Assembly: GCA_963842525.1 (NCBI GenBank)
Contig: CAWJGT010000003.1
Span: 832,001-896,000 of the forward strand
DNA from: an uncultured Holophagales bacterium
Lineage (GTDB): Bacteria; Acidobacteriota; Thermoanaerobaculia; Multivoradales; UBA5704
Direction: 5' to 3'
Length of the DNA: 64,000 bases
The notes under the pieces were generated by a model. The model was not told the origin of the DNA and made no database searches. It saw only the letters and a list, made by a program, of their open reading frames with translations. A program made the translations under genes and the position numbers. This document shows positions 5,216 to 51,464 of this stretch, piece after piece. How positions within the stretch are numbered: the stretch's first letter is position 1; each line of letters begins with the position of its first letter.

Positions 5216-5238
5216 ATCCTAAGGACGTATACGAGCCC

Positions 5239-5547: not shown

Positions 5548-5562
5548 AGGAGGTAGAGCCGA

Positions 5563-5862: not shown

Positions 5863-5878
5863 GCGACGGCTCTCGATT

Positions 5879-6967: not shown

Positions 6968-6975
6968 GGTCGGCT

Positions 6976-26873: not shown

Positions 26874-27221
26874 CCGTAGAGACGCCCTAGTCCACGACCA
26901 CTGCCCTTTTGGGTACCACAGCGGCCAGGGCGTCTCCGGTCTTGCGATACCGTTTCGGACCGTCACCGGGCGGGGTGGATTGCACCTGTACCACCACGGC
27001 CAGGGTGTCTCCTTCATTTATCGCGATACCGTTCCGGACGGTCACCGGGCGGAGGCACCCGCAACGCGAAATCCGATCGGCTGTCGCCAAAACGCCACCA
27101 ACCCCGGGGCAGGCGGATGTCGGGGACATGATGAAATGTTCGTGGTGGCGGGGGCCGGAGACGCCCTGGCCGCGGTGGTAGCCGATAGGGTTGTGGTCGT
27201 GGACTAGGGCGTCTTCTACGG
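26874..27221. mobile_element. REPIN/MITE-like element with ~28-bp terminal inverted repeats
   Basis: ccgtagagacgccctagtccacgaccac ... gtggtcgtggactagggcgtcttctacgg; inner IR ggccagggcgtctcc/ggagacgccctggcc; internal ~75-80-bp degenerate direct repeat. Confidence 0.7.
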
Positions 27222-27272: not shown

Positions 27273-28774
27273 ATGAACCTCCACGACCTCTTCTCGATCG
27301 CGGTCGCCCGCAACCCGGGCAAGGCGGCGCTTCGCTTCGCCGCGGACGGGACCGTGAACGATCTCTCCTACCAGGAGCTGTTCGCCGCCGCGGACCGCCT
27401 GGCCGCCGGCCTCTTGGCGCGCGGGGTGGAGAAGGGGGACCGGGTCGCCTTTTTTCTGGGCAACCGGCCGGAATTCGTGACCGCCTACCTCGCCGTGCTG
27501 CGGATCGGCGCGGTGATGGTGCCGATCAACCTCGCCTACCGGCGCCGCGAGATCGGCCACATGCTGCGCGACGCCGCGCCGCGTCTTCTGCTGACCGAAC
27601 GGGCCCACCTGCCCATCCTGGACGAGGTGGACGAGGAGGACAGGCGCAGCATCGAGGAGATCCTCCTTGCCGAGGATGTCAACGGCGGCGATCCGGCAGG
27701 CCTTACGATGCCCCGGGTCGAGGGAAGCGACCTGGCGATGCTCCTCTATACCTCGGGCACCACCGGCCGCAGCAAGGGGGCGATGATCACCCACGACAAC
27801 GTGATGGCGACCGTCACCGGCCTTCTCGCCGCCTGGGCCTGGCAGGCGGACGACTCCCTGCTGCTCTCGCTGCCCCTCTTCCACACCCACGGCCTCGTCG
27901 TGGGCCTGACCTGCGCGCTGACCGCCGGGGCCACCGTCCTGCTGCGGCGCAAGTTCGACGCCGCCGAGGCGGTTCGCGACCTGCTCGGCGGCGAGCCGAC
28001 CCTCTTCTTCGGCGTCCCCACCATGTACGTGCGGCTGGTCGAGGAGCTGCGGCAGGACCGCCGGACCGTTCGGCCCTCCGGCGGATGCGCCTTTTCTGCT
28101 CGGGGAGCGCCCCGCTCGCGCCGGAGACCTTCGAAGCCTTCCGCGAGCTGACCGGCCACGCGATCCTCGAACGCTACGGCATGACCGAGACCGGTATGAA
28201 CCTGAGCAATCCCTACGCGGGAACGCGCCGGCCGGGCACCGTGGGCACGCCGCTCCCCGGCGTCTCGGCCCGCATCGTCGACGCCCAGGGCCAGGACGTG
28301 CCGCCGGGTTCGGAAGGCGAGCTCCTGGTGCGCGGCAGCAATGTTTTTTCAGGCTACTGGCAGGCGCCGGAGAAGACCGCCGAGAGCTTCCTCCACGACG
28401 ACCTCGGCCGCCGCTGGTTCCGCACCGGCGACCTCGCCCGGCAGGAGATGGAAGACGGTTATTACACGCTCCTCGGCCGCCGCCACGAATTGATCATCTC
28501 GGGCGGCTTCAACATCTATCCGCGCGAGATCGAAGAAGTCCTGACCTCCTTCCCCGGCGTCAAAGAAGCCGCGGTCGCCGGCCGGCCCCATCCCGAGTGG
28601 GGCGAAGTGCCGGCCGCTTTCCTGGTCGTCGACGGATCGATCGAAGAGGCCGAGCTGATCGATTTCTGCAAGCGCCAGCTCGCCAGCTTCAAGGTGCCGC
28701 GGACGGTTTGTTATGTCGACGCCCTGCCCAGGAACGCACTGGGCAAGGTGCAGAAACACCTGCTGCCGAAGTAG
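27273..28774 (+). CDS. Acyl-CoA synthetase, malonyl-CoA synthetase (MatB)-like; frameshift near 28070
   Basis: LYTSGTTGRSKG, LPLFHTHGL, ERYGMTETGMNLSNPY, PRNALGKVQK. Confidence 0.8.
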
Positions 28775-28799
28775 GATTCCGCCCCAGGAGGATCGAGGC

Positions 28800-29246
28800 A
28801 TGTCCGGCGACGATCAGGATTTCAAGCAGGCGGTGGAGGCAGGAGACGGGATCTTCGTCCTGCGGGGCGGCGGCGACAAGAGCCGCTCCTGGAACGGCAT
28901 CCAGTACAAGACCGGCCTGTCGGCGAAGAACGTCAACGCGAAGAAGCTGTCGATGAACGTGGCAACCATTCCGCCGGGCGGAGTGGCCTACGCCCACATC
29001 CACGTCGACTTCGAGGTCATGCTGTACATCCTCGCGGGGCGGGTCCGGCACGAGTACGGCCCCGGCCTCACCAAGGTGGTCGACAACCAGGCCGGCGACT
29101 TCATCTTCATCGAGCCCGGCGTCCCGCACGAGGTCTTCAACCTGAGCGACACCGAGCCAGTCGTCGCCGTGGTCGCCCGTTCGGACGCCTCGGAGTGGGA
29201 GAACATCATCTCCTACGACCGGAGCCGCGGCGCCGCTCCCGTATAG
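28800..29246 (+). CDS. Cupin domain protein
   Basis: AHIHVDFE and GDFIFIEPGVPH cupin motifs; aggagg RBS. Confidence 0.85.
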   Translation: MSGDDQDFKQAVEAGDGIFVLRGGGDKSRSWNGIQYKTGLSAKNVNAKKLSMNVATIPPGGVAYAHIHVDFEVMLYILAGRVRHEYGPGLTKVVDNQAGDFIFIEPGVPHEVFNLSDTEPVVAVVARSDASEWENIISYDRSRGAAPV

Positions 29247-29291
29247 AATCGCGCTCCGGCACGAACCGCCGCAGCCCGAGGAGGACTCTGG

Positions 29292-30176
29292 ATGAAGCCA
29301 GCCCCGTTCGACTACCTCGCGCCGGACTCTCTGGAGTCCGCGCTGGACGCTCTCGCCCAGCACGGCGGCGAGGCCAAGATCCTGGCCGGCGGGCAGAGCC
29401 TGATCCCGGTGATGAATTTCCGGCTGGCCCAGCCCTCCATCCTCATCGACCTCAACAAGATCCACGAGCTCGACTTCGTCCGCCGTGGCGAGGACGGCGG
29501 CCTCTTGATCGGCGCCATGACCCGCCAGCGGCGGCTGGAGCGCGATCCTCTCGTGGCCGAGGCGGCGCCGCTGTTGCGCGAGGCGGTCCCCTGGATCGCC
29601 CATCCGCAGATCCGCAACCGCGGAACGCTCGGCGGCAGCCTCTCCCATGCGGATCCGGCGGCCGAGCTGCCGGCCCTTGCCGTGGCTCTTCGTGCCCGTC
29701 TGCGGCTCCGCAAGGCCGGCGGCGACCGCTGGGTCGATGCAAGCGACTTCTTCGCGGGGCTCTTCACCACCGCCCTGGAGCCGGACGAGATCCTGGTCGA
29801 GGCCGCGATCCCGCCGCTCCCTTCCCGCACCGGCTGGGCCTTCCTGGAGGTCGCCCGCCGTCACGGCGACTACGCCCAGGTCGGCCTGGCCGCCCTCGTC
29901 ACCCTGGGAGAGGATGACCGCTGTCGCGAGGCGCGGCTGGTCTTTCTCAGCGTTGGAGACGCGCCGGTCGAGGCCCGGGAGGCGGCCCGGCTCCTGGTGG
30001 GGGAGGAGATCTCGCCGCGGGCGATCGAAGCCGCGGCGGACAAGGCTTCGCGCGACGAGATGAACCCCCGCGGGGACGTCCATGCCAGCCCCGAGTTCAA
30101 GCGGCACCTGGCCCGTGTGCTCACCGGCCGGGCGCTGCGCCGGGCCGCCGAGCGGGCCCGCAACGGGAGATCCTGA
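29292..30176 (+). CDS. Molybdenum hydroxylase FAD subunit (CoxM-like)
   Basis: MKPAPFDY, AGGQSL, HPQIRNRGTLGGS, ADPAAE. Confidence 0.92.
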   Translation: MKPAPFDYLAPDSLESALDALAQHGGEAKILAGGQSLIPVMNFRLAQPSILIDLNKIHELDFVRRGEDGGLLIGAMTRQRRLERDPLVAEAAPLLREAVPWIAHPQIRNRGTLGGSLSHADPAAELPALAVALRARLRLRKAGGDRWVDASDFFAGLFTTALEPDEILVEAAIPPLPSRTGWAFLEVARRHGDYAQVGLAALVTLGEDDRCREARLVFLSVGDAPVEAREAARLLVGEEISPRAIEAAADKASRDEMNPRGDVHASPEFKRHLARVLTGRALRRAAERARNGRS

Positions 30177-30674
30177 ATGACGGCTCTCTACAAGGTCTCG
30201 GTCACGGTCAACGGCCGGCGCTACGAGCGCGAGGTCGAGCCGCGCCTGCTGCTGTCGGACTTCCTGCGCCACGAGCTGGGCCTGACCGGCACGCACGTGG
30301 GCTGCGAGCACGGGGTGTGCGGCGCCTGCACGATCCTCTTCGACGGCGAGCCGGCCCGCTCGTGCATCCTGCTGGCGGTCCAGGCGGACGGCCACGAGCT
30401 CACCACGGTCGAGGCGCTCGCGCCGGGGCCCGACCAGCTCCACCCCCTGCAGCAGGCCTTCTGGGAGTGCCACGGCCTCCAGTGCGGCTTCTGCACACCG
30501 GGCTTCCTCATGACCCTGGTGCCCTTCCTGGAGGAGAATTCCGACCCGTCCGAAGCCGAGATCCGCCAGGCCATCTCCGGCAACCTCTGCCGCTGCACGG
30601 GCTACCAGCACATCGTCGACGCGGTGAAGCTGGCCGCGGAACGGCGGCGTTCTCCGGGAGCGGCTACGGGATGA
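30177..30674 (+). CDS. Molybdenum hydroxylase 2Fe-2S subunit (CoxS-like)
   Basis: GCEHGVCGACT, QCGFCTPG, NLCRCTGY. Confidence 0.95.
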   Translation: MTALYKVSVTVNGRRYEREVEPRLLLSDFLRHELGLTGTHVGCEHGVCGACTILFDGEPARSCILLAVQADGHELTTVEALAPGPDQLHPLQQAFWECHGLQCGFCTPGFLMTLVPFLEENSDPSEAEIRQAISGNLCRCTGYQHIVDAVKLAAERRRSPGAATG

Positions 30675-30681
30675 TCGACCG

Positions 30682-31232
30682 ATGATCGACCTCGACCGCG
30701 TGGAGGCGCTCTTCGCCGAGCGTGAGCCCGAGGTCCGGGCTTTCCTTCCCGAGGAGGGACGGTTCGACCGCCTGCGCCGCGAGGCTGCGGCTCTCGAGGC
30801 CCGCTGGCCCGACCCGGAGCGCCGGCCCCCTCTCTTCGGCGTCCTCGCCGGCGTCAAGGACATCTTCCACGTGGACGGGTTCGAGACCGGCGGCGGCAGC
30901 CGGCTGCCGCCCGAGGTCCTCCGCGGCCCCGAAGCGGCGAGCGTGACGACGCTCCGCGCGGCCGGCGCCCTGATCCTCGGTAAGGCCGTCTCGACCGAGT
31001 TCGCCTATTTCGCGCCCGGTCCGACGCGCAACCCCTGGAACCCGGAGCACACGCCGGGTGGGTCGAGCAGCGGCTCGGCCGCCGCGGTCGGCGCCGGCCT
31101 CGCTCCCCTGGCGCTGGGCACCCAGACGATCGGCTCGATCATCCGCCCCGCCGCCTTCTGCGGAGCCGTGGGTTACAAGCCCAGCTACGAGCGGATCTGC
31201 GCCGCGGTGTGATTCCTCTGGCGCCGTCCTTC
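30682..31232 (+). pseudogene. Truncated amidase-signature protein (first copy)
   Basis: Close paralog of the N-terminal half of 34027-35259; similarity stops after GVIPLAPSF where the AT-richer insert begins. Confidence 0.85.
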
Positions 31233-31263
31233 GGGGCGACGTCGCTCCAGTGGGGTCCAATGG

Positions 31264-32850
31264 TTACCCAACCGCTGCAAGGCCCGAGTTGGGCTTATCA
31301 TGGCCAACTGCTTCGAAGTCCCCGACCATTACGGATTCTGCCTCCAGTAGCACAGATGGATGGAAGCGATAGAAGCCACGATTTGTTCCGTTATTAGTAG
31401 ACACCATCTCCATCTTCAGTATCCGCTTACTGACGAGGTGCGGAAGACTCCATATTGGATCTTTTACTGCGCACACGCAACCCCGCATGAGCCCCAAAGA
31501 CAGGAGTTCATCGTCCGTGGCTAAGCACGCTTCGCGAACCTCGAGGGCGTTCTTTACAGCGCGCAGAGACGCCTCAGCGTCTCCGGGGAGATGGAGCACG
31601 ACGAAGCCTTTTTGGGTAGACAGCAAGAGACTCTTCAGCTCGTTGGAGAGTGGGATGCCTTTGGCTTCGGCTGCCTCTTTGCAGCTAATGACGGGACTGG
31701 CCAGAACGTAATCCTTCATACAAGGACCAGGCTCTGGGGTGGCCGCGTCGACGCGCACGTGCTTGCTCAGGTCTCGAATGGTAACGACGGCCGCCGTCGA
31801 CCACACACGCTCAAATGCTTCAAGCATGTCACCGCGATCTTCCGCATCGAGTATAAGCCGCCCTCGACGAAGCTTGCTGGCGTCATCGAAGGCGTAATCA
31901 GCGACATACGCGCGAGAGATGCCCGCTGCCCTATCAATAAACATCACCATATCTTCCAACGAGGTTGCTTCGGCTAGGATCGTAGGCCCTACTCTGCGGA
32001 TGTTGACTCCTCCTTCGAGTAATTGGCGCAATGTCGGGTAAAAATTAGACCATTCGTGATCGGGTACCACGAACAGCCTCCGGATGTCTGCGCCTCGACG
32101 CACGGCTTCAATATTCTTCTTTATGTATCTCCGCTGATCGCGATCATCGGTCCAGAACGCTGAAGAGAGAGTCGCTACTCCAATGACCTCACAGGGTGCA
32201 ACTACTTTGTCTATCTCGTCATAAATTGCTTGGTAATACTGGCCGGGTGAGAGGGCAATCTGACCTCGTGAGGCCAGCTTGAGTATTGACACAAATGAAC
32301 TCAAGACATAACGGTCTATTTCGGCGTGCCAGGAAGAAGGGACTGCTCGGAAGGTGCTACGAAGCGTGTCAAAGATGCGGGGAAGAGCCGGATATTCATC
32401 CTCCATCTCCAGCCTCACACCGGCGAGCCAGATCGAAAGCTGCGTCTCATTACTGCTTGGGTTGCCTGCATCAAAGAGCATGGTTGTAATACCACGTAGA
32501 TCGCTTGGCAGGACAGCGGACTTGTCGCCGGACTTTGCATGCAAGATGCCTGTTCAACGTTTGCCGAAATGAGAAAGGAACACTCCGAGTTCAAGTAGGA
32601 CATTGTCGCGAGGCGACATGCGTTCGCCGCCGCGGTAGTTAGTCAGATCATCAGGCGTTGCAATTAGGAGTGCCGCATCTACTTCGGCACCGAGATTGAG
32701 GAGTGCCTCGAGTGGGTAGTCACCCGGTCGGAAAATTTCGCGCCAGCCGACAACTGTTGCGCCGAGGGATTCCAACGCAGATCTGACCTGTCGGTCTATA
32801 TCTGCGGCCTCACTGGAGGATCCAACGAACACTCTCGGCCTCGAACTCAT
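31264..32850 (-). CDS. TIR-like (Cap12/PycTIR-type) + central unknown domain + YbaK-like domain fusion, with one in-frame TGA at 32554-32556
   Basis: VFVGSSSE...TPDD...RDNVLLELG...LPSDLRGI TIR-like; C-terminal EAAEAKG...LKSLLL...LHLPGD...LAT..EL..LG...GCV YbaK-like; the two listed ORFs are in the same frame. Confidence 0.7.
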
Positions 32851-33154
32851 GATTGCCCTCGCTTCCCTCGTGGCTCTTCAGATCCGCCACTTAAATTAAG
32901 CATCTATCCGGGAGCCTCCCGCGGCAGAGTTGCTTGCCAAAGGGCTCCTCCACAGCGATTTCGTTTCCACCATTCTACAGCAGAAACCGGGAAGGTGCGC
33001 AACACCCCCACGTTTTCAAGCTCTTTCCTCTGGCATTCTCTAAACTTTGTAACGAATTGACGGCACTTGTTATGTAGGCAGGACCTCCGTCGGCGGAGGA
33101 CGGGTATCAGGAACATGCGCCGGAGCTGGTCCCCCACCTGTGTCATGCCACAAA

Positions 33155-33384
33155 CCCGAGGAGGAACGAGGCCTGTCCGGCGACGACCAGGATCTCAAAC
33201 GATCTCAAACAGGCGGTGGAGACAGGAGACTGGATCTTCGTCCTGTGGGGAGGCGGCGACAAGAGCCGCTCGGCACGAGGTCTTCAATCTGAGCGACACC
33301 GAGCCCGTGGTCGCCGCGGTGGCCCGCTCGGACGCCTCGGAGTGGGAGAACATCATCCTCTACGACCGGAGCCGCGGGGGATGA
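33155..33384 (+). pseudogene. Internally deleted duplicate of the cupin gene
   Basis: Matches both ends of 28785-29230; ATG changed to CTG, 10-bp duplication gatctcaaac, central part missing. Confidence 0.85.
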
Positions 33385-33429
33385 GCCACTGAGGCTCTTC
33401 GCAGCGCCGTTCCCGTATAGAATCGGCCG

Positions 33430-34026
33430 ATGAAGCCAGCCCCGTTCGAGTACCTCGCGCCCGACTCTCTGGACGCTGCGCTGGACGCCATCGCCCAGCA
33501 TGGCGGCGATGCCAAGATCCTGGCCGGCGGGCAGAGCCTGATCCCGGTGATGAGCTTCCGGCTGGCTCAGCCCTCGATCCTCGTGGACCTCAACAAGATC
33601 TCCGAGCTCGGCTTCATCCGCCGTGGCGAGGACGGCGGCCTCTCGATCGGCGCCATGACCCGCCAGCGGCGGCTGGAGCGCGATCCTCTTGTGGCCGAGG
33701 CGCCGGCCCGCTCTTGCATCTTGCTGGCGGTCCAGGCGGACGGCCACGACCTCATGACGGTCGAGGCGCTCGCGCCGGGACCCGACCAGCTCCACCCCCA
33801 GCAGCAGGCCTTCTGGGAATGCCACGGCCTCCAGTGCGGCTTCTGCACCCCGGGCTTCCTCATGACCCTGGTGCCCTTTCTGGAGGAGAATTCCGACCCA
33901 TCCGAAGCCGAGATCCGCCAGGCCATTTCCGGCAATCTCTGCCGCTGCACGGGTTACCAGCACATCTTCGATGCGGTGAAGCTGGCCGCTGCACGGCGGC
34001 GATCTCTGGGAGTGGCCGGATGCAGG
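33430..34026 (+). pseudogene. Deletion chimera of coxM-like 5' end and coxS-like 3' end, in frame with the amidase
   Basis: ...PLVAEA (CoxM) joined directly to PARSCIL (CoxS); first Fe-S motif lost. Confidence 0.85.
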
Positions 34027-35259
34027 ATGATCGACCTCGACCGCCTGGAGGCGCTCTTCGCCGAGCGCGAGCCCGAGGTCCGGGCCTTTCTCCCTGAGGA
34101 GGGGCGGTTCGAGCGCCTGCGCCGCGAGGCTGCGGCTCTCGAAGCCCGCTGGCCCGATCCGGAGCGCCGGCCCCCCCTCTTCGGAGTCCTCGTCGGCGTC
34201 AAGGACATCTTCCACGTGGACGGGTTCGAGACCGGCGGCGGCAGCCGGTTGCCGCCCGAGGTCCTTCGCGGCTCCGAAGCGGCGAGCGTGACGACGCTCC
34301 GGGAAGCCGGCGCCCTGATCCTGGGCAAGACCGTCTCCACCGAGTTCGCCTATTTCGCGCCCGGTCCGACCCGCAACCCCTGGAACCCGGAGCACACGCC
34401 GGGCGGATCGAGCAGCGGCTCGGCCGCCGCAGTGGGGGCGGGCCTCTGCCTCCTGGCGCTCGGCACCCAGACCCTCGGGTCGATCATCCGCCCCGCCGCA
34501 TTCTGCGGAGCCGTGGGGTACAAGCCCACCGGAGGACGGAGGATTCCGACGGACGGCGTGATCCCTCTGGCTCCCACGTTCGACCACGTCGGCCTCTTTG
34601 CGCCCGACGTTGCAGGTGTACGGCGCGCGGCGAGGTTGCTGTGCGAAGACTGGCGGCGGGATACGCCGAGCCGCACGCCCCGGCTGGCGGTGACGCAGGG
34701 ACCCTACATGTCCCGCGTCTCCGCGGAGGGTCTGGCCCATTTTCGCGCCGTCTGCGACCGGCTGGCTGCCGCCGGGTACGACCTGATACCCGTCCCCGCC
34801 ATGCCGGACTTCGAAGAGATCGTGGCGCGGCACTATCGGATCTTCGCGGCCGAGGCGGCGAGCGTCCACCGCGACTGGTTCGCGCGTTTCGGGGACCTCT
34901 ATGATCAACGGACCGCCGAGCTGATCCGTAGAGGACAGGGGATCTCGAACGCAGAGCTGGCGCGCGACCGCGCCGGCGTCGAGAGGCTCAAGGACGAGCT
35001 GACGGAGCTCATGGACGATTACCGCATCGACCTCTGGATCTCGCCGCCGGCCCTGGGGGCCGCCCCGCGCGGGCTCGACAGCACCGGCGATCCGGTGATG
35101 AATGTGCCCTGGACGCACGCCGGGATGCCCGCCATCGGCCTGCCGGCGGGCCGCAACAGCTCCGGCCTGCCGATGGGCCTCCAGGCCGCCGCGCGCTGGT
35201 GGGCCGACGAAGACCTGCTCGGGTGGGCGGAGGGGCTGGAGGCGGCGCTGCGCTCATGA
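34027..35259 (+). CDS. Amidase-signature family enzyme (malonamidase E2-like)
   Basis: GVKD Lys, PGGSSSGSAAAV, GTQTLGS Ser-cisSer-Lys triad; full length. Confidence 0.85.
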   Translation: MIDLDRLEALFAEREPEVRAFLPEEGRFERLRREAAALEARWPDPERRPPLFGVLVGVKDIFHVDGFETGGGSRLPPEVLRGSEAASVTTLREAGALILGKTVSTEFAYFAPGPTRNPWNPEHTPGGSSSGSAAAVGAGLCLLALGTQTLGSIIRPAAFCGAVGYKPTGGRRIPTDGVIPLAPTFDHVGLFAPDVAGVRRAARLLCEDWRRDTPSRTPRLAVTQGPYMSRVSAEGLAHFRAVCDRLAAAGYDLIPVPAMPDFEEIVARHYRIFAAEAASVHRDWFARFGDLYDQRTAELIRRGQGISNAELARDRAGVERLKDELTELMDDYRIDLWISPPALGAAPRGLDSTGDPVMNVPWTHAGMPAIGLPAGRNSSGLPMGLQAAARWWADEDLLGWAEGLEAALRS

Positions 35260-36957
35260 GCCCGGAGCCCGTCACCCGCTGCACCGTCCGTCCGGGCGCT
35301 TATTACGATTCGATTGTCCTGATGCAGCTCCAGCGTGCTCTGGAGGCGTTGCCGGGCGTGCTCGACGCCGGGGTGGTCATGGCCACGCCCGCCAACCAGG
35401 ACATGCTGGCGGCGAGCGGATTGGCTCCGGGCGAGGAGGCCGCCGCCGGCCCGAACGACCTCCTGATCGCTGTGAAGGCGGAGAGCGAGGCGGCTGCCGG
35501 GGAGGCGCTGGCGCGCGTGGATGCCCTGCTCCAGGTCCGCCGCGGTGGGGGAGAGGAGGACTTCCGGCCGCGCAGCCTCGCGACCGCTCTCCGGCAGCTC
35601 CCCGAGGCCCGCTGGGTGCTCGTTTCGGTCCCCGGGCGTTATTCGGCGGGCGTGGCCCACGAGGCTCTCGACCTCGGCCGGAGTGTCTTCCTGTACAGCG
35701 ACAACGTGCCTCTGGCCGAGGAGGTCGCTCTCAAGCGCAAGGCCCGCGACCGGGGGCTCCTCGTCCTCGGGCCGGACTGCGGGACGGCGATCGTCGGAGG
35801 GACGGGGCTCGGGTTTGCCAACCGTGTGCGGCACGGCGGGGTCGGGATCGTCGCCGCCTCGGGCACCGGGCTGCAGGCGGTCGCGGCCCGCATCCACGAC
35901 CTGGGAGGAGGGATCTCGCAGGCGATCGGCACGGGAGGGCGGGACCTCTCGGAGGAGGTCGGCGGAACGACGGCGCGGCAGGCCCTCGACCTCCTGGGCC
36001 GCGATCCGGACACGCGGGCCATCGTCCTGGTCTCGAAGCCTCCCTCGCCTGCGGTCGCCGCGCGCCTTCTCCTCGCCGCTCAGCGTACGGGCAAGCCGGT
36101 CGTGGCGTGCTTCCTCGGCCTTCCCACGCCGCTGCGCCGGCTGGGCGGGATCAGCTTCGCGGTAAGCCTGAGCGAGGCGGCGGATCTGGCCGTGCGGCTG
36201 GAAGCCGAGGAGCCTGGAGGCGAGGCGCCGGCGGACGGAACGGGCGGATTCGTCCGTGGCCTCTTCTCCGGCGGCACGCTGGCGTACGAGACGCAGCTCG
36301 CCCTGGAGGCGTTCCTGACGCCGATCTGGTCGAACGCGCCGGCGGGAGATTCGCGGCATCCTCGCCGATCCCGTCCGCAGCCGGGACCACACGATCCTCG
36401 ACCTGGGAGCGGACGAATTCACGGTCGGCCGCCTGCACCCGATGATCGACCAGGACCTGCGCCTCCGGCGTTTGCGCCAGGAGGCGGCCGATCCCGCGGT
36501 CGGAATGATCCTGCTCGACGTGGTCCTCGGCGATGGGGCGCACGCCGACCCGGCCGGCGAGCTCGCGCCGGCGATCGAGCGGTCCCTCGCGGAGCGAGGC
36601 GACGCGCTGACGGTCGTTGTGCTGCTCGTTGGGACCGACGAGGACCCCCAGAACCGGGAAGAGCAGGCCACGACGCTCGCCTGGGCCGGTGCGCGGGTCT
36701 GCCGGACGGTGGAGGAGGCCGCGTGGCTCGTCTGGCGGCACGTGGCCGCTGCGGCGGACGGGGAGGACGGAGGCCCGCCGGTCTCCCTGGAAGAGGTCCG
36801 CGGTCCCGTGGCGGCCGTCAATATCGGCCTGGAATCGTTCTACGATAGCCTCGTCGCTCGCGGAGCCCAGGCCGTCCAGGTCGAATGGAAGCCTCCCGCT
36901 GGGGGGAACGAGAAGCTGGCCGGGATCCTGTCCAGGATGAAGAATGCCCGACATTGA
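35256..36957 (+). CDS. fdrA: FdrA/AllF-like protein, frameshift near 36370
   Basis: YYDSIVLM, YSDNVP, GPDCGT, ASGTGLQ, GLFSGGTL, FTVGRLHPMID, LDVVLG. Confidence 0.85.
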
Positions 36958-38188
36958 CCACGCCAACCGCACGGCCGTCGAGCGCATGACCGCGGCGCGG
37001 CCGATGCTGACCGGCGTCGCCGTGGCGCGGGACGTCATCCCCGGGATGCACGACGACCTGCTGCTCCACGCCGGTCCGCCGATCGAGTGGAGCCGGGCCT
37101 CGGGACCTCTGCGCGGCGCCGTGATCGGTGCGCTGCTCTTCGAAGGGCGTGCCCGCGACGAGGCCGCAGCGGTCGCCCTCGTCGAACGGGGAGACATCCG
37201 GCTGGAGCCCTGCCACCACCATGCCGCCGTCGGGCCGATGGCAGGCGTCACCTCCCCCTCGATGAAGGTCTACGTGGTCGAGGATGCCACCCACGGCCAC
37301 CGCACCTTCTCCAATCTGAACGAGGGGTACGGAAAAGTCCTGCGCTACGGTGCTTTCAGCGAAGAGGTCCTCGCGAAGCTGCGCTGGATGAACGACGTCC
37401 TGGGGCCGGTCCTCGGCGAGGCGATCGCCCTCTCCGGCGGGATCGATCTCCGGACCCTCCTCGCCGAGGCGCTGCACATGGGCGACGAGGGGCACAACCG
37501 CAACAAGGCGGGCTCGCTTCTCTTCCTGAAGCTCCTGGCGCCGCACATCGCCCGCGTCACGCCAGACGCCGCCGTCGAGTCGGAGATCCTGCGGTTCATC
37601 GGCGACACGCCCCTTTCCGTGCTCAACCCGGTGATGGCCGCGTGCAAGGCCATGGCGGACGCGGCGCACGGCGTCGAGGGGAGCACGATCGTCAGCGCCA
37701 TGGCGCGCAACGGCACGGACTTCGGCATCCAGGTGAGCGGCCTCGGCGACCGCTGGTTCACAGCTCCGGCACAGGTCCCGGACGGCCTCTATTTCCCGGG
37801 CTTTTCGAGCGCGGACGCCAACCCCGATATCGGCGACAGCACGATCACCGAGACAGCCGGGATCGGCGCCTTCGCCATGGCCGCCGCCCCGGCGATCGTC
37901 ACCTTTATCGGCGGGAGCCCCCGGGACGCGCAGAACGCGACGTTGGAGATGTACGAGATCACGGAGGCCGAGCACCCGCATTTCACGATCCCGACCCTCG
38001 GCTTCCGCGGCTCGCCGGTGGGGATCGATCTGCGCAAGGTGGTCGAGCTCGGGATCACACCGCGCGTCAACACCGGCATCGCCCACCGCGAGGCCGGCGT
38101 CGGCCAGGTCGGAGCCGGGCTGGTCCGTCCGCCCTTGGAGATCTTCGAAGAGGCGCTGGTCGCTTTCGCCGAAAGATATGAGATCTGA
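36944..38188 (+). CDS. DUF1116 (YlbE/AllG-like) protein
   Basis: LLHAGPPI, GPMAGV, LHMGDEGHNRN, NPDIGDSTITE, NTGIAHREAGVGQVGAG. Confidence 0.88.
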   Translation: MPDIDHANRTAVERMTAARPMLTGVAVARDVIPGMHDDLLLHAGPPIEWSRASGPLRGAVIGALLFEGRARDEAAAVALVERGDIRLEPCHHHAAVGPMAGVTSPSMKVYVVEDATHGHRTFSNLNEGYGKVLRYGAFSEEVLAKLRWMNDVLGPVLGEAIALSGGIDLRTLLAEALHMGDEGHNRNKAGSLLFLKLLAPHIARVTPDAAVESEILRFIGDTPLSVLNPVMAACKAMADAAHGVEGSTIVSAMARNGTDFGIQVSGLGDRWFTAPAQVPDGLYFPGFSSADANPDIGDSTITETAGIGAFAMAAAPAIVTFIGGSPRDAQNATLEMYEITEAEHPHFTIPTLGFRGSPVGIDLRKVVELGITPRVNTGIAHREAGVGQVGAGLVRPPLEIFEEALVAFAERYEI

Positions 38189-38200
38189 AAGGAGGAGGCC

Positions 38201-39025
38201 GTGTACGTCCCTTATGACATGAGCAAAGTGAAGGTCCTGGACCTCTCACAGAACTTCAGCGCGGATTCGCCGTCGTTCGCCTTTTATGAAGGCCCGACGG
38301 TCAAGTGGGTGAAGCGCCTTGCGTTCGAGGGTGTGAACGCACAGTTCATCTCGACCACCAATCACATTGCGACCCACCTCGATTCGCCGATCCATTTCTA
38401 CGATCCCGGCCCGGACATCGCCGGCATCCCGATCGACAAGCTGGTCGGCCCGGCGTGCATCGTCGACATCTCGCAATTCGGCGTCGGCGATTATCAGATC
38501 TACGGGCCGGAGCACTTCGAGCAGTGGGAGCAGAAGACCGGCATCACGATCGAGCGCAACGACATCCTGGTGATCCACACCGGCTATCACCACTACTACA
38601 ACGAGGATTGGTACAAGGTTCACAACCAGGAGCAGGCGGACCTGCCGCGCGCCTTCCTGAAGCACCCCGGTCCTCGGAGCCTCTTCGTCGAGTGGGTGCT
38701 CGACCGCGGCATCCGCTGGCTGGCCTATGACTGCATCGCCGCGGACCATCCGTTCAACACCAACGTGCGCAAGGCGCGGCCGGACCTGATCCCGGAGGTG
38801 GAGAAGGTGATCGGCATGTCGATCGACGAGGCCTTCCCCTGGCCCGCGGACTACCAGTGCATGCACGTCAAGCTCTTCCCGCACGGCGTCTTCCACGCCG
38901 AGAACGTCGGCGGCCAGATCGACGAGGTGCTCGACCAGAGGGTCTGGCTCGGCTGCTTCCCCTTCCGCTTCCGGGGCGGCGAGGCCGCCTTCTCGCGGAT
39001 CGTGGCGTTCGTGGAGGAGCGCTGA
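38201..39025 (+). CDS. Cyclase-family metal hydrolase (kynurenine formamidase-like fold)
   Basis: HIATHLDSPIH metal motif, IHTG, HAENVG. Confidence 0.85.
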   Translation: MYVPYDMSKVKVLDLSQNFSADSPSFAFYEGPTVKWVKRLAFEGVNAQFISTTNHIATHLDSPIHFYDPGPDIAGIPIDKLVGPACIVDISQFGVGDYQIYGPEHFEQWEQKTGITIERNDILVIHTGYHHYYNEDWYKVHNQEQADLPRAFLKHPGPRSLFVEWVLDRGIRWLAYDCIAADHPFNTNVRKARPDLIPEVEKVIGMSIDEAFPWPADYQCMHVKLFPHGVFHAENVGGQIDEVLDQRVWLGCFPFRFRGGEAAFSRIVAFVEER

Positions 39026-39035
39026 GGCGGAACCC

Positions 39036-40886
39036 TTGATCCCTCTCTCTCCTCCGGCGGACGTCAAGGCTTTCCTGGCTTCGACCCGGCTGTTCGGCGG
39101 GTTGGAGGAGGCCGCGCTCGACGAGGTTGCGGGCCACCTGGAGTGGCTGCTCGTTCCGGGTGGAGAGACGCTCTGTCGGCAGGGAGAGGAGGAGGATGGT
39201 CTCTATCTCGTCTTCAGCGGCCGGCTGGCGGTGGTCCGCGAGTTCGCCGGCGAGGAGGCCCTCCTGGGCGAGGTGGGCCGGGGGGACAGCGTCGGCGAGA
39301 TCTCGGTCCTGACCGGGAAGCCGCGCTCGGCGACGGTGCGCGCCCTCCGCGACGTGGTCGTCGCCCGGCTGTCCCGCGCGAGCGCCGAGCTCCTCCTGGG
39401 GAAGTACCCCGGCGTCCTCCTGGCGATCGTTCGCACCCTGGCGGGCCGGCTGGCGCCGTCGGAGCGCCCCGCGCGGAGCCGGAGCTGTCTCGCGCTGGCC
39501 GTCGCTCCCGTAGGCGATCTGCCGATTGCGAAGCTCGTGAGTGGCCTGGTCGAGTCGTTGTCAGCGCTCGGGCCGACCCTGCACCTGAGCGCTCGGGAAA
39601 TCGACAGCCGTTTCGGCGCCGGTGCCCGCCACTGTGCCGAGGGGAGCGCCGAGCACGGCCGCATGGCGGCGTGGATCAACGAGCAGGAAGCCAGAACCCG
39701 CTTCCTGGTCTACGAGGCGGACGCGGCGGCCTCCGCCTGGACGCGCCGCTGCCTGCGCCAGGCGGACCGCATCCTGGTCGTCGCCTCCGGAGAGGGGGAG
39801 CCGTCCCTCGGTCCGCTCGGGCCCGAGCTCGCCCGGCTGGAAGAGGACCAGGGCAGGCAGCTCGAAGAGCTGGTCCTGCTGCATGAGGAGCCGGGCCGGC
39901 CCCCGCGCGATACGGCACGCTGGCTGGCGCTCCACCCGTTCCTGCGCCATCACCATTTCCGCTTCCGGCCCGCCGACTTCGCACGGCTGGCCCGGTTCCT
40001 CGACGGCAGCGCCGTCGGCCTGGTCCTCGGGGGAGGCGGCGCACGGGGTTTCGCCCACATGGGCGTCCTCCGCGCTCTTGAAGAGGCGGGCATCCCGATC
40101 GACCGGATCGGCGGCACGAGCATGGGAGCAGTGCTCGCCGCCATGTATGCCCGCGGCTTTGACTGCTCCACCATGATCGATCTCACCCGCTGGGGGTGGT
40201 GCGAGCTGCAGCCGCACAAGGTCTACACCCTTCCCCTGATCTCGATCTGCTCCATGGCCAAGGCCGAAAAGATGCTGGACCGGTGGTATGGCGAGGATCG
40301 GATCGAGGATCTGTCGACGGACTTCTTCTGCGTGTCGACCAACCTCACCCGCACGGAGGTGGTCGTCCACCGGCAGGGGAGCCTGCGCAGGGCGGTCAAC
40401 GCCAGCATGACAATCCCGGGGATCACGCCGCCCATGCTCGGATCCGAGGGAGACCTGCTGGTGGACGGCGGGGTCCTCAACAATCTGCCGACCGACGTGA
40501 TGCGGGACCTGGGAGAGGGGCCGGTCATCGCTGTGGACGTCTCCGCGAAGCTCGACCTGCGGGCGGACCCGAGCTACACCGACTCCCCCAACCCCTGGCA
40601 GCTCCTGAGGAGCCGCTTCCGCCGCGCCGCCGCGTCCCGGCCGTTCCCGAACATCCTGCGCCTCATCCACCGCTCCGCCCTACTCGCGAGCGATGTGTAC
40701 GCGAAGCAGGCCAAGGGCGAGGTCGAGCTCTACCTCGACCTGCCGATGGACGGGTTCGACATGTTCAACATGGAGGCGCTCGACGATCTTGTGGAGATCG
40801 GTTATCAGTTCACGCGCGAGACGCTCGAAAAAACGCCCTGGAGACCGGAGAGCGCGGCTCCCTATGAAACCGGAGGACGGCAGTGA
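39036..40886 (+). CDS. cNMP-binding patatin-like phospholipase (NTE family)
   Basis: GEIS...PRSATV cNMP pocket; GGGARG, GTSMG, DGG. Confidence 0.9.
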   Translation: MIPLSPPADVKAFLASTRLFGGLEEAALDEVAGHLEWLLVPGGETLCRQGEEEDGLYLVFSGRLAVVREFAGEEALLGEVGRGDSVGEISVLTGKPRSATVRALRDVVVARLSRASAELLLGKYPGVLLAIVRTLAGRLAPSERPARSRSCLALAVAPVGDLPIAKLVSGLVESLSALGPTLHLSAREIDSRFGAGARHCAEGSAEHGRMAAWINEQEARTRFLVYEADAAASAWTRRCLRQADRILVVASGEGEPSLGPLGPELARLEEDQGRQLEELVLLHEEPGRPPRDTARWLALHPFLRHHHFRFRPADFARLARFLDGSAVGLVLGGGGARGFAHMGVLRALEEAGIPIDRIGGTSMGAVLAAMYARGFDCSTMIDLTRWGWCELQPHKVYTLPLISICSMAKAEKMLDRWYGEDRIEDLSTDFFCVSTNLTRTEVVVHRQGSLRRAVNASMTIPGITPPMLGSEGDLLVDGGVLNNLPTDVMRDLGEGPVIAVDVSAKLDLRADPSYTDSPNPWQLLRSRFRRAAASRPFPNILRLIHRSALLASDVYAKQAKGEVELYLDLPMDGFDMFNMEALDDLVEIGYQFTRETLEKTPWRPESAAPYETGGRQ

Positions 40887-43253
40887 CAGCACAGCCCCTT
40901 GGCGAACGCATCAAGCGCAATGAAGACCCGCGCCTCCTGACCGGCCGGGCCCAGTTCATCGACGACATCGAGCTGCCGGAGATGGCGCATGTCGCCTTCC
41001 TGCGCAGCCCGTACGCGCATGCCCGCATCCTCAGCATCGACACGTCGCGGGTGCTCCAGCGCGAGGGCGTGATCGCGGTCTTCACGGCCGAGGATCTGGG
41101 CGACTACTGGCAGCCGGGGCCGCTGCTGGTGCCGCCGCCGCCGGTCGAGGGGATGGTTTTCAACCAGCGGACGCAGGTCCCGCTGGCCAACGGCAAGGTG
41201 CGCCATGTCGGCGAGCCTGTGGCACTGGTCGTGGCCGTGTCCCGCTACGTGGCCGAGGACGCGCTGGAGGACATCTACGTCGACTACGAGGCGCTGCCGG
41301 CCGTGGTGGAGCTCGAGAAGGCCCTGGAGCCCGGGGTGGCGCTGGTGCACGAGGACGTGGGCTCGAATATCGCAGCGTATGTGCCCCAGAAGAAGGGGGA
41401 CTACGAGGCGGCGCGGGCGCAGGCCGACGTGGTGATCCGCCGCCGCTTCTCCTACGACCGCGGCGCCGCGGCGGCGATCGAGAACCGTGGCGTCGTGGCG
41501 CAGTGGGACGCAGGGGTCCAGAAGCTGACGATCTGGGACACGACCCAGGCGCCGATCCCGGTGCGCAACGGCCTCGCGGCCATGCTCGGGCTCTCCGAGC
41601 ACAAGGTGCGGCTCGTGACGCCCTTCATCGGCGGCGGCTTCGGCCCCAAGATCATGATGTTCTATCCCGAGGAGGTGCTGATCCCCTGGCTCGCCCTCCG
41701 GCTCGAGCAGCCGGTCAAATGGATCGAGGACCGTGCCGAGAACTTCTTCGCCACGACCCAGGAGCGCGGCCAGATCCACGACGCGGAGATCGCGTTGACG
41801 CGCGACGGCCGCATCCTCGGGGTCAAGGACTCGTTCCTGCACGACACCGGCGCCTACGATCCCTACGGCCTCACCGTGCCGCTCAACAGCCAGTGCACGC
41901 TGATGGGACCTTACCGGGTGCCCAATTATTCGAGCGAGTTCAAAGCGATCTTCACCAACAAGACGATCGTCACGCCGTACCGCGGCGCCGGCCGCCAGCA
42001 CGGGGTCTTCGTGATCGAGCGGCTGATGGACCTCGCCGCTCGCGAGCTCGGGATCGACCGGACCGAGATCCGCCGGCGCAACTATCTGCGGCCGGACGAG
42101 TTCCCGCACGACCACGTGATCATTTATCAGGATTTCGCGCCCCTCTATTACGACAGCGGCAACTATGAGCCGGTGCTCGACCAGACATTGGAGCGAATCG
42201 GATACGATCGCTTCCTGAAGGAGGAGCAGCCGCGGCTGCGCGCCGAGGGCCGGCAGGTGGGGATCGGCGTCGTCTCCTACGTCGAAGGGACCGGCATCGG
42301 CCCGTTCGAAGGCGCCCGGGTCCAGGTCCAGACGAACGGCAAGGTCACCGCGGTCACCGGCATCGGCACGCAGGGGCAGGGGCACTTCACGGTCCTCGCC
42401 CAGGTCGCCGCGCAGCAGCTCGGCGTGGAAGTGGACAGATGTGGATGTCGTGACCGGCGACAGCGATCAGTTCCACTGGGGGACCGGCACTTTCGCCAGC
42501 CGCGGCGCCGTGGTGGCCGGCAACGCCGTGCACGAGGCGGCCAAGCTGGTGCGCGGAAAGGCGATCCGGCTCGCCTCCGAGAAGCTCGGAGTCGGCGAGG
42601 ACCGGATCGAGCTGGCGGAAGGCCAGGCGCGCGTGATGGGCGAGCCGGAGAAGTCGATCTCGCTCGGCGAGCTCGCCCGCTTGGCCAATCCGATGCGCGG
42701 CGCGGTCAAGCCGGGCACCGAGCCGGGCCTGGAGGCCACGAGCTATTTCGGCCCCCACCGCGGCGCCACGGCGAGCGGCTGCCACGCAATGATTTTAGAG
42801 ATCGATCCGGAGACGATGCAGATCGAGATCAAGAAATACGTCGTGGTCCACGATTGCGGCCGTGTGCTCAACCCGCTGATCGTCGACGGGCAGGTCCACG
42901 GCGGCGTAGCCCAGGGGCTCGGCAATTGCTGGTTCGAGCAGCTCGTCTACGACGACAACGGCCAGCTCCTGAACGCCTCCTTCATGGACTTCCTCCTCCC
43001 CACGGCCCTCGACGTGCCGCGCGTCGAGGTGGGCCACGAGGAGACCGTCTCACCGCTCAACGAGCTGGGCACCAAGGGAGCGGGCGAAGCCGGCGCCATC
43101 CCGGTCGGAGCGCTCTTTGCCCAGGCGGTCGAGGACGCGCTGGCGATCCCCGGCCTGGAGATCCTGGAGATCCCCCTGAAGCCCAGCCGGCTGTGGGAGA
43201 TCGTGATGGCCCGAACCGCAGGGCCGCCAGCGGCCATCGCTGCCGATGTCTGA
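40883..43253 (+). CDS. Molybdopterin subunit of a xanthine oxidase-family hydroxylase (CoxL form II-like); frameshift near 42435
   Basis: RNEDPRLLTG, GGGFGPK, PYRGAGR active-site loop, GQGHFT, GQVHGGVAQG, KGAGE. Confidence 0.9.
43078..43203 (+). repeat. 126-bp direct repeat copy 1 (3' end of the coxL-like gene)
   Basis: Matches 46601-46726 with one visible mismatch. Confidence 0.92.
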
Positions 43254-43254
43254 G

Positions 43255-43400
43255 CCACCTGCCCCGAGCCAGCGCCCGCTGCTGCCAACCCAGTGCTGAC
43301 TGCTGGCAACCCAGCACCCGCCGCTGCCAACCCAGCGGCCACCTGCGCCAATCCAGCGCTCACTGCTGGCAACCCAGCGGCCACCTGCACCGCGGCAGCA
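43255..43400. repeat. Degenerate 21-bp tandem repeat
   Basis: Recurrent ctgctg(c/g)caacccagc units at ~21-bp spacing. Confidence 0.75.
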
Positions 43401-43420
43401 GAGCTCACGCAGAGCCCGCT

Positions 43421-43490
43421 GGGAGCGCCGGCATCCTGCCGGCCGAGTCACCAAAAGCGAAATAAGAAGCCGGCAGGGATGCCGGCGTCC
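43421..43490. repeat. REP-like inverted repeat
   Basis: gccggcatcctgccggc ... gccggcagggatgccggc. Confidence 0.7.
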
Positions 43491-43580
43491 GGCGAGCCGG
43501 CACAGCTCGCCATAGACCAGAGGCATGAGCTTTTCGAGAGCATCGAGAGCATGCTCGCCTTGACGCGGGACCGCAGACAT
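43490..43580 (-). pseudogene. N-terminal fragment of an ECF-type sigma factor (TIGR02999-like)
   Basis: ALDALEKLMPLVYGELCRLA resembles the ALxxLxPLVYxELRRLA pattern; cut off by the REP-like repeat. Confidence 0.55.
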
Positions 43581-43699
43581 GCTAAAAAGTTAAGCGAAAC
43601 CATTCTCGAAGAGGGCGTGCCATGCCTGGATCCTTGGTCCAAAAAGCTTGTGCCACATCGCTCTGTCTTCTCGCGGGAGCCACCAGCGCGGGTACGGCG

Positions 43700-46423: not shown

Positions 46424-46459
46424 CCGTTCACCAACACGCGGATCGGGCCCGCCGCCGGC

Positions 46460-46590
46460 ATGGCCCCGGGGTACAAACCCTGCGAGAGTGGTGGATTTCC
46501 TGCGTCCCTTCGGGACTTGGGGATGTTTGGGATGGCCTACCTGGGGTTGAAAACCCCAGGCTTCATGCCTGTGCCCCTTCGGGGCTCCGA
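46460..46590. repeat. Cluster of REP-like palindromes
   Basis: gtcccttcgggac, cctggggttgaaaaccccagg, gccccttcggggc. Confidence 0.7.
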
Positions 46591-46600
46591 AGGCACCTTA

Positions 46601-46726
46601 GAGCGGGCGAAGCCGGCGCCATCCCGGTCGGAGCCCTCTTTGCCCAGGCGGTCGAGGACGCGCTGGCGATCCCCGGCCTGGAGATCCTGGAGATCCCCCT
46701 GAAGCCCAGCCGGCTGTGGGAGATCG
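46601..46726 (+). repeat. 126-bp direct repeat copy 2 (displaced coxL-like 3' end, continuing to AEAAAAD*)
   Basis: Encodes AGEAGAIPVGALFAQAVEDALAIPGLEILEIPLKPSRLWEI, as at 43078-43203. Confidence 0.92.
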
Positions 46727-46890
46727 CCGAGGCCGCGGCAGCGGATTGAAGGCCGTCGTATTGATGGGCGGGCAGCGTTCAGATAGAATTCACTCATGAT
46801 AGCAATGCAGGCATGGCTTCTGGGAGAACGTGAGGGCTGCAAACCGGCGGTCCTGCCACGGCGCTCCGCCCCTTCTGAAAGGAGAACGCA

Positions 46891-49976: not shown

Positions 49977-51464
<1,488 letters not shown>

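Follow-up and report, generated by a model that had tools for sequence, protein, structure and literature searches.

Which compound is degraded by the genes at positions 27,273–43,253 of a 64,000-nucleotide stretch of contig CAWJGT010000003.1 from an uncultured Holophagales bacterium? The whole stretch, called the window below, is part of a 9.95 Mb genome in 34 contigs that is 96% complete, and whose nearest relatives are metagenome-assembled genomes of Thermoanaerobaculia (Acidobacteriota). The cluster encodes the three subunits of a CoxL/M/S-type molybdenum hydroxylase, an amidase-signature (AS) amidase, homologs of FdrA (AllF) and AllG, and a cyclase-family hydrolase. A few bacteria have been known since the 1950s to degrade pyrimidines oxidatively, and an original prediction, made from the window alone, had read the genes as a new version of the oxidative pathway that employs a transcarbamylase and a malonamidase. 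We propose, with a probability of about 0.5, that the cluster is a rearranged form of a conserved operon for the degradation of a cyclic ureide resembling a nucleobase, with uracil or thymine as the most likely substrate, and that degradation follows the predicted route.

We deduced the steps of the route from sequence homology and the genomic context. The base would be imported by an NCS1 or NCS2 permease, and the molybdenum hydroxylase would oxidize uracil or thymine to barbiturate, which would make it the orphan uracil/thymine dehydrogenase. Ring opening to ureidomalonate would fall to a hydrolase, for which the cyclase-family enzyme, where present, is the leading candidate. FdrA and AllG would cleave ureidomalonate, an N-acylurea, with phosphate to carbamoyl phosphate and malonamate. 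The malonamidase-E2-like amidase would convert malonamate to malonate and ammonia, and a MatB-like ligase, where linked to the cluster, would activate malonate to malonyl-CoA. A carbamate kinase encoded elsewhere in the genome could use the carbamoyl phosphate to produce ATP.

The conservation of the cluster was assessed in 80 loci fetched from genome contigs with the AllG query, to which they are 72–88% identical. The loci come from Thermoanaerobaculia, other Acidobacteriota, Chloroflexota (mostly Anaerolineales), Gemmatimonadota, and KSB1. Gene presence was determined by tblastn with the window proteins, and many of the absences are contig edges. The C- and N-terminal pieces of fdrA were found in 74 and 68 loci, coxM and coxS in 58 each, the amidase in 55, and the N- and C-terminal parts of coxL in 54 and 50. 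The cyclase-family gene is present in 70 loci, in 20 of them at 45% identity or higher, NCS1 in nine, and the ligase in six, and neither the cupin nor the patatin gene of the window has a counterpart in any. Most of the 80 loci contain the core, and chance therefore does not explain the grouping of the genes. The prediction had proposed co-occurrence across genomes as its check: the core coxM-coxS-amidase-fdrA-allG-coxL did recur, whereas the ligase is sporadic and the cupin is missing. The prediction would have been given up if neither ligase nor amidase were conserved with fdrA and the DUF1116 gene (allG); the amidase is conserved and the ligase is not.

The most common gene order is coxM-coxS-amidase-fdrA-allG-cyclase-coxL, followed in Thermoanaerobaculia by a convergent NCS1 gene. 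The Chloroflexota loci have extra coxG and xdhC genes upstream and an NCS2 permease gene, and 17 of the 80 loci, all from this phylum, carry an AllH gene downstream of coxL. Locus L028 from Gemmatimonadota retains the gene set in another order. Genome G010 contains ligase-coxM-coxS-amidase-fdrA-allG-coxL-allH-coxG-NCS2 without a cyclase gene, and both cyclase and AllH are lacking from the cluster of genome G130. Family f14, from the same class as the window genome, possesses an NCS2 gene and the array coxMSL-allH-fdrA-allG-cyclase-amidase, the CoxL of which belongs to a different subfamily (approximately 30% identical). In genome G046, about 18 kb separate two parts of the cluster, and the stretch retrieved there showed no coxL. 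As a whole, the cluster represents a genuine catabolic unit, widely conserved across phyla in several gene orders. Its recurring core consists of the hydroxylase, AS amidase, FdrA, AllG, and a nucleobase permease; the cyclase, AllH, and the ligase are frequent but dispensable neighbors. Loci that contain fdrA-allG without cox genes (L067, L068, and L075) have unrelated or defence-like neighbors and no informative enzymes.

The transcarbamylase step is modeled on Escherichia coli, where AllF, AllG, and AllH form the oxamic transcarbamylase, which interconverts oxalurate plus phosphate and carbamoyl phosphate plus oxamate; all three genes are required, and transcarbamylation is the only experimental function given for the FdrA/AllG protein pair (PMC11326118). 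The window resembles the E. coli allFGHK set in the adjacent FdrA and DUF1116/AllG homologs, and the proposed chemistry is alike, namely phosphorolysis of an N-acylurea to carbamoyl phosphate and an amide. However, the E. coli set includes AllH and the carbamate kinase AllK, and the pair follows allantoin genes, whereas the window pair is located among a molybdenum hydroxylase, an AS amidase, and a cyclase-family hydrolase. The first frame piece of the window FdrA scores 340 bits against the NCBIfam family NF004760, and its intact ortholog from locus L021 scores 516, above the cut-off of 433. The caveat of the prediction that no YlbF-like (AllH) or carbamate kinase gene lies in the window agrees with our Pfam and NCBIfam scans. 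In the class, AllG was found in 14 of 151 sampled genomes, across 11 of 68 genera. Seven of the 14 have AllH on the same contig within a few kilobases. The other seven (G000, which is the window genome, and G046, G102, G020, G118, G130, and G138) all belong to the order of the window, in which seven of the eight AllG-positive genomes are without AllH; in the other families of the class, all six have AllH next to fdrA. The pattern suggests that the order of the window has lost the third transcarbamylase subunit.

FdrA and AllG may act not as a transcarbamylase but similarly to ADP-forming acyl-CoA synthetases, on an acid produced by the hydroxylase and the amidase, so that no carbamoyl phosphate would be released. 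Databases annotate FdrA in this way, and the protein contains CoA_binding, Succ_CoA_lig, and Ligase_CoA domains. AllH and a linked carbamate kinase are missing from the lineage of the window, and in a quick tree the window-type AllG proteins form a clade of their own, well apart from E. coli AllG, which has a very long branch. We nevertheless regard this function as very unlikely, since the one experimental activity of the pair is transcarbamylation, homologous modules elsewhere share an operon with carbamate kinase, and relatives of the cluster do carry AllH.

Clusters from cultured actinomycetes provide a link of this cluster type to barbiturate. A protein search of a plasmid collection with AllG identified two large replicons, of Nonomuraea gerenzanensis and Embleya sp. 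NBC_00888, in which coxM-coxS-coxL(-coxG), one or two NCS2 permease genes, and a PucR-family regulator gene face allH-fdrA-allG. The order in Embleya is CN-hydrolase-coxG-coxL-coxS-coxM-NCS2-PucR, facing allH-fdrA-allG, and then xdhC; the CN-hydrolase next to coxG is Nit2/PH0642-like. About 6 kb from the Embleya cluster lies a gene with the best PDB match to barbiturase, at 594 bits versus at most 324 bits for cyanuric acid hydrolases. A carbamate kinase homolog, 43% identical to plasmid carbamate kinases, overlaps this gene upstream. Barbiturase and AllG each occur at a single place in the 5.7 Mb Embleya record. The CoxL proteins of the window and of the Embleya cluster are reciprocal best hits: in Embleya, the cluster CoxL reaches 493 bits versus 313 for the next paralog, and in the window genome the two frame pieces reach 417 and 229 bits versus 407.

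Because the carbamate kinase gene overlaps the barbiturase gene, barbiturate breakdown in Embleya appears to yield carbamoyl phosphate. AllHFG is the only candidate transcarbamylase seen near the barbiturase, and we infer that it supplies carbamoyl phosphate from barbiturate. The Embleya locus thus supports a tie of this cluster type to barbiturate and carbamoyl phosphate that is independent of the reasoning behind the prediction. The actinomycete clusters have in common with the window CoxM, CoxS, FdrA, AllG, and, in Embleya, the reciprocal-best CoxL, and they carry NCS2. Unlike the window, they contain AllH, a PucR-family regulator, and a true barbiturase nearby. Embleya further differs in that the Nit2-like CN-hydrolase takes the place of the AS amidase, and the carbamate kinase accompanies the barbiturase. 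No cyclase, AS amidase, or ligase was found in the Embleya and Nonomuraea stretches searched.

The same transcarbamylase module is combined with other ring-opening enzymes. On enterobacterial and Aminobacter plasmids, the array DUF2877-fdrA-DUF1116-carbamate kinase, in which DUF2877 is the AllH subunit, forms an operon together with genes for a cyanuric acid hydrolase and a transporter of the NCS2 or ABC type, as in the Leclercia plasmid NZ_CP040892.1 (positions 661–9590, locus L098) and the Aminobacter plasmid NZ_CP062120.1 (locus L097). The plasmid operon, which is widespread on conjugative enterobacterial plasmids, also contains a conserved hypothetical protein of 412–455 amino acids. The arrangement suggests a phosphorolytic cyanuric acid route that yields carbamoyl phosphate. 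The plasmid operon is similar to the window in the AllFG(H) module and the nucleobase-type transporter, and it couples the module to the ring opening of a cyclic ureide, as proposed for the window cluster. In contrast to the window, the operon opens the ring with an AtzD-family enzyme whose closest relatives are cyanuric acid hydrolases, and it lacks both a hydroxylase and an AS amidase. AllFGH with carbamate kinase also occurs beside a cysteine hydrolase, together with genes annotated as xanthine permease, in Peptoclostridium acidaminophilum and on an E. coli plasmid. In nitrifier genomes, allFGHK is reported to lie beside triuret and biuret genes (PMC12625717). AllFGH appears to be a general back end for the phosphorolysis of acylureas released from cyclic ureides.

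The hydroxylase subunits are well conserved, with coxM orthologs 73–83% identical in the Thermoanaerobaculia loci. The active-site motif of CoxL is PYRGAGR, and no AY[RK] motif is present in CoxL of the window, L003, or L021. A true CO dehydrogenase was rejected on the basis of this motif, which stands in place of AYRCSFR, the loop that we take to mark form I CoxL. The cluster enzyme resembles form II CoxL-type molybdenum hydroxylases in its three-subunit L/M/S composition and in the motif, which is AYRGAGR-like. CoxL scores 930 against the NCBIfam family NF040766, just below the cut-off of 950. Its closest solved relatives include quinoline 2-oxidoreductase and 6-hydroxypseudooxynicotine dehydrogenase of a nicotine pathway. 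The sole link of CoxLMS to uracil/thymine dehydrogenase is the barbiturase near the reciprocal-best CoxL in Embleya.

The best solved match of the intact amidase is malonamidase E2 (PDB 1ock), aligned over the full length with an E-value of 6e-46 and 160 bits, followed by GatA with an E-value of 1e-32. Residues K62, S131, S155, and R158 of 1ock align to identical residues of the window amidase; we take the first three to be the Lys-cisSer-Ser triad of malonamidase E2 and R158 to be the Arg158 that serves as a criterion for this enzyme. The window amidase scores below every NCBIfam amidase cut-off. Judged by its closest solved relative, it may be specific for malonamate.

The ring-opening step would be carried out by a different enzyme than in the previously described pathway. 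The AtzD/barbiturase family (PF09663) was not found in the window genome, in G004, G010, or G046, or in 301 sampled genomes of the phylum, and the search can detect the family, since the Embleya record was matched in the same kind of search. If the route runs through barbiturate, a different ring-opening enzyme is therefore needed. The closest solved relatives of the cyclase are a cyclase-family protein and, both distantly related to it, kynurenine formamidases and isatin hydrolases, and a protein-atlas look-up returned only "cyclase family" clusters. A tryptophan 2,3-dioxygenase gene lies at 23,418–24,200, 3 kb upstream of the cluster; the cluster cyclase belongs to the kynurenine formamidase family, yet in relatives it travels with allG and not with the dioxygenase gene. 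We infer a role of the cyclase as a barbiturase substitute only tentatively, because G010 and G130 have clusters that are complete apart from this gene. Because of these clusters without cyclase, it is also possible that the AS amidase opens the ring and that the cyclase acts as an amide hydrolase.

The oxidative pyrimidine pathway of Rhodococcus erythropolis comprises uracil/thymine dehydrogenase, barbiturase, and ureidomalonase, as summarized in PMC3758960. Barbiturate, ureidomalonate, and malonate as the end product are the same as proposed for the window. In R. erythropolis, however, water cleaves ureidomalonate to urea and malonate, whereas in the window proposal phosphate cleaves it to carbamoyl phosphate and malonamate. 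The proposal also differs in that there is no AtzD/barbiturase-family gene and that a malonamidase step is added.

The best NCBIfam family of the ligase is malonyl-CoA synthase (PRK07514), with 194.9 and 304.5 bits for the two pieces and a cut-off of 558. The C-terminal half matches MatB (PDB 4fuq) at 232.7 bits versus 146.7 for the best non-MatB chain and 137 for oxalate-CoA ligase. The cluster-linked homolog from L021 passes the malonyl-CoA synthase cut-off at 565.1, reaches 414 bits with MatB compared with 307 bits with oxalate-CoA ligase, and has the window ligase as its top match in the window genome. Ligase genes lie beside the cluster in the window, G010, G046, L021, L022, L040, L059, and L080, some of which are from Chloroflexota. 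At E-values of 1e-50 or lower, the ligase occurs in 89 of the 151 class genomes (a count that includes G009, flagged as unpublished), among them whole families without AllG. Because the ligase is common in genomes without AllG, co-occurrence provides no link to the cluster, and only the repeated adjacency does. The ligase is plausibly a functional, occasional neighbor of the cluster.

Malonamidase E2 and MatB of rhizobial malonate metabolism are the best solved relatives of the window amidase and ligase, respectively, and the family readings of the prediction stand in this respect; they differ in that the window amidase falls under the NCBIfam cut-offs and the ligase is only sporadically linked to, and mostly absent from, the cluster loci. 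Except for its own remnant, no homolog of the cupin was found in the genome or in the loci fetched, and a protein-atlas look-up gave no usable match. The cupin and patatin genes are local additions outside the conserved cluster.

The same enzyme logic could serve another heterocycle, either a purine-derived or five-membered ureide (such as a hydantoin or parabanate, degraded through oxalurate and oxamate to oxalate) or another substituted pyrimidine. A different cyclic-ureide substrate is the main rival explanation. The only characterized AllFGH acts on oxalurate and oxamate, AllFGH modules are paired with several different front-end hydrolases, and PucR-family regulators and "xanthine permease" genes accompany the modules elsewhere. 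The cupin weakly matches the oxalate-decarboxylase bicupin family (E-value 3.5e-4). The NCS1 permease of the window scores 375.7 bits against NCBIfam ncs1, above the cut-off of 353.1, and its best equivalog is an allantoin permease. We nonetheless consider another heterocycle unlikely. The amidase is closest to malonamidase E2, and the ligase scores higher against MatB than against oxalate-CoA ligase in both L021 and the C-terminal half of the window protein (233 versus 137). In two actinomycetes, the homologous cluster has a true barbiturase in its neighborhood; uricase and allantoin-pathway genes were not encountered where the related loci are annotated, and the cupin is not conserved. Orthologs of the NCS1 permease in nine loci are 82–89% identical in Thermoanaerobaculia and 51% identical in L028, and the linked NCS2 permease of L021 best matches uracil permease, below the cut-off.

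Several observations weigh against uracil or thymine as the substrate and against the proposed route. AllH (PF11392) was not found in the whole 96%-complete window genome, in a search in which the E. coli control was positive, and it was likewise not found in half of the AllG-positive genomes of the class. The single carbamate kinase (arcC) match of the window genome lies on contig C7, unlinked to the cluster and among cytochrome oxidase genes; no related genes surround it. The cyclase is missing from G010 and G130, and the Chloroflexota cyclases are only about 38% identical to that of the window. The ligase occurs in 78 of 137 AllG-negative and 11 of 14 AllG-positive genomes, and it is adjacent to the cluster in few loci. 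The allantoin permease match of NCS1 is below its cut-off. The regulator in the actinomycete clusters belongs to the PucR family, whose name refers to purine catabolism, and in Nonomuraea a distance of about 30 kb separates coxL from the barbiturase, which is 78% identical to that of Embleya and lacks an adjacent carbamate kinase gene. With an SH-aLRT of 27, the quick tree does not place the window AllG clade relative to the E. coli protein, the actinomycete pair, and the plasmid forms, and no functional subtype of AllG was assigned from it. The frame changes described below could also be real. The transcarbamylase route of the prediction gains from the conserved core and from the barbiturase and carbamate kinase context in Embleya, and loses from the absence of AllH and the absence of the cyclase from some clusters.

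The window copy of the cluster has been rearranged (Table 1). All genes named in the prediction are present on the plus strand between 27,273 and 43,253, with the NCS1 gene at 49,977–51,464 on the minus strand. The predicted map did not hold in two respects: coxL is the last gene, after the patatin gene, instead of lying beside coxM and coxS, and the duplication, inserts, and frame changes had gone unseen. Similarly, the amidase of the prediction exists as an intact copy, but the reading frame after coxS encodes only a fragment.

Table 1 Features of the gene cluster and its surroundings in the window, from Pfam and NCBIfam scans
Feature	Position	Strand	Details
MatB-like acyl-CoA ligase (AMP-binding)	27273–28774	+	two frames, 27273–28151 and 28085–28774; Pfam AMP-binding, AMP-binding_C
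Single-domain cupin	28800–29246	+	Pfam Cupin_2; open reading frame from 28713, likely start 28800
coxM, FAD subunit of molybdenum hydroxylase	29292–30176	+	FAD_binding_5, CO_deh_flav_C
coxS, 2x[2Fe-2S] subunit	30177–30674	+	Fer2, Fer2_2
Truncated AS amidase, copy 1	30682–31212	+	176-amino-acid N-terminal fragment; Pfam Amidase positions 25–174 of 445
Foreign insert of lower GC content, 1.9 kb	31213–33154	-	two minus-strand open reading frames
426-amino-acid reading frame with YbaK/tRNA_edit-like C-terminal domain	31264–32544	-	inside the lower-GC insert
Truncated 98-amino-acid CAP12/Pycsar TIR-domain reading frame	32554–32850	-	inside the lower-GC insert
Remnants of second cupin-coxM-coxS copy	33155–34026	+	cupin fragment, first ~85 amino acids of coxM, C-terminal ~100 amino acids of coxS
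Intact AS amidase, malonamidase E2-like	34027–35259	+	410 amino acids; Pfam Amidase 221.8 bits
fdrA/allF homolog, two frames	35256–36957	+	NCBIfam FdrA on first piece; Ligase_CoA in second piece
allG (DUF1116) homolog	36944–38188	+	PF06545 324 bits, cut-off 27; PDB 3clq 419 bits
Cyclase-family (PF04199) metal-dependent hydrolase	38201–39025	+	111.9 bits versus cut-off 23.1
cNMP-binding, NTE-type patatin-like phospholipase	39036–40886	+	between cyclase and coxL
coxL, molybdopterin subunit, two frames	40883–43253	+	C-terminal tail replaced by downstream insert
Insert of 3.4 kb with 933-amino-acid PKD-like protein	43204–46600	+	flanked by 126-bp repeats 43078–43203 and 46601–46726
Displaced original coxL 3' end, ...LWEIAEAAAAD*	46601–46750	+	matches C-termini of relatives
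NCS1 nucleobase:cation symporter	49977–51464	-	Pfam Transp_cyt_pur

Repeat finding and self-BLAST revealed that the segment 28,782–31,233 recurs at 33,155–34,582 with 85–93% identity; the individual direct repeats that make up the remnants are 85–94% identical. In the second copy, an in-frame deletion of 786 bp joins the N-terminus of coxM to the C-terminus of coxS, and a further 7 bp are missing between coxS and the amidase. Together, the two deletions produce a single fused open reading frame of 609 amino acids (33,430–35,259) that reads into the amidase. The copies differ by 107 substitutions, 65 of which affect third codon positions, and therefore they diverged as functional genes before one was truncated. 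A recent tandem duplication and an assembly-polishing error as the origin of the duplicate were both rejected because of the 85–93% identity and the third-codon-rich substitutions. The guanine-cytosine (GC) content is lower between the copies (0.594 for 32,001–34,000), and the insert that splits the operon there may be the remnant of a defence islet.

A second insertion altered the end of coxL. The last 126 bp of the conserved part of coxL are repeated 3.4 kb downstream with 99% identity, and only the second repeat continues into the C-terminus known from relatives; we conclude that the 3.4 kb insert split the end of coxL. The insert replaces the last codons of the gene. Four copies of a 21-bp tandem unit (43,264–43,385) lie just after the first 126-bp repeat. 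The NCS1 gene directly follows coxL in close relatives, whereas in the window the two are separated by about 6.7 kb containing the 933-amino-acid protein and two LanC-like genes. The LanC-like genes (47,150–49,761) adjoin each other and are paralogous, with approximately 70% DNA identity over 460 bp. Other Thermoanaerobaculia have different cargo at the same junctions: L017 has a 653-amino-acid protein without a Pfam match, and L067 has thioredoxin/TPR, a C-5 DNA methylase, and MTaX1. Just upstream of the ligase gene, at 26,880–27,214, is a 60-nucleotide inverted repeat that is 90% complementary, with 215 nucleotides between its arms, and a 30-nucleotide direct repeat lies at 26,944–27,052. 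The repeats could represent a small mobile element or a regulatory structure.

One frame change each interrupts the ligase (28,059–28,088), fdrA (36,335–36,367), and coxL (42,436/42,438). All three genes are in a single frame in relatives, and the FdrA and CoxL proteins of relatives each align to the window in two frames. The window genome might therefore hold a decaying relic, in which real frame changes combined with the inserts and the truncated duplicate to inactivate the pathway. Three frame changes within about 12 kb, three foreign inserts, a truncated amidase copy, and an altered C-terminus of CoxL are in line with decay, as is the split cluster of the related genome G046. We consider decay improbable. 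The essential rpoB gene is also frameshifted in the same assembly (contig C9, around position 670,515), as is a second CoxL paralog (C9, 71,658–73,890), whereas rpoC is intact; since assembly indel errors occur, the three frame changes were treated as such and are probably errors rather than marks of pseudogenes. One full-length copy of each core gene is left, and the substitutions between the duplicate copies are mostly at third codon positions. Start and stop codons in the operon still overlap or abut, at amidase/fdrA (where the ATG of fdrA overlaps the amidase stop codon), fdrA/allG, and patatin/coxL. In public sequencing runs, matching shares of at most 0.13 were found, in soil metagenomes, from which we draw no conclusion on habitat or the frame changes. 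Despite a diverged partial duplication and no fewer than three foreign inserts, one apparently complete gene set remains in the operon. The window copy is not the best exemplar of the cluster; intact versions are present in L003, L092, and G010.

Within the literature searchable, from which subscription journals and supplements were excluded, only barbiturase has an assigned gene in oxidative pyrimidine catabolism. The searches returned no gene linked to uracil/thymine dehydrogenase, no sequence for ureidomalonase, and no paper linking AllFGH to barbiturate or ureidomalonate, so that the route proposed here is undescribed there. More tentatively, and with somewhat less confidence than in the proposal for the window itself, we speculate that soil Acidobacteriota, Chloroflexota, Gemmatimonadota, and some Actinomycetota share an oxidative pyrimidine pathway capable of yielding ATP, with a CoxLMS dehydrogenase, a phosphorolytic AllF/AllG, a cyclase in place of barbiturase, and an AllH-less two-subunit form in the order of the window. 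AllFG(H) with carbamate kinase would then be a general acylurea module that acts on oxalurate, the product of cyanuric acid, and that of barbiturate.

If the proposal is correct, genes would be assigned to uracil/thymine dehydrogenase, and pyrimidine catabolism would include a phosphorolytic branch that saves energy as carbamoyl phosphate and does not release urea. The recently discovered AllFGH transcarbamylase would be extended to a second class of substrates. The idea can be tested directly, since homologous clusters exist in cultured strains of Embleya and Nonomuraea. Soil phyla that are abundant but mostly uncultured would then obtain nitrogen and carbon from nucleobases by a phosphorolytic route.

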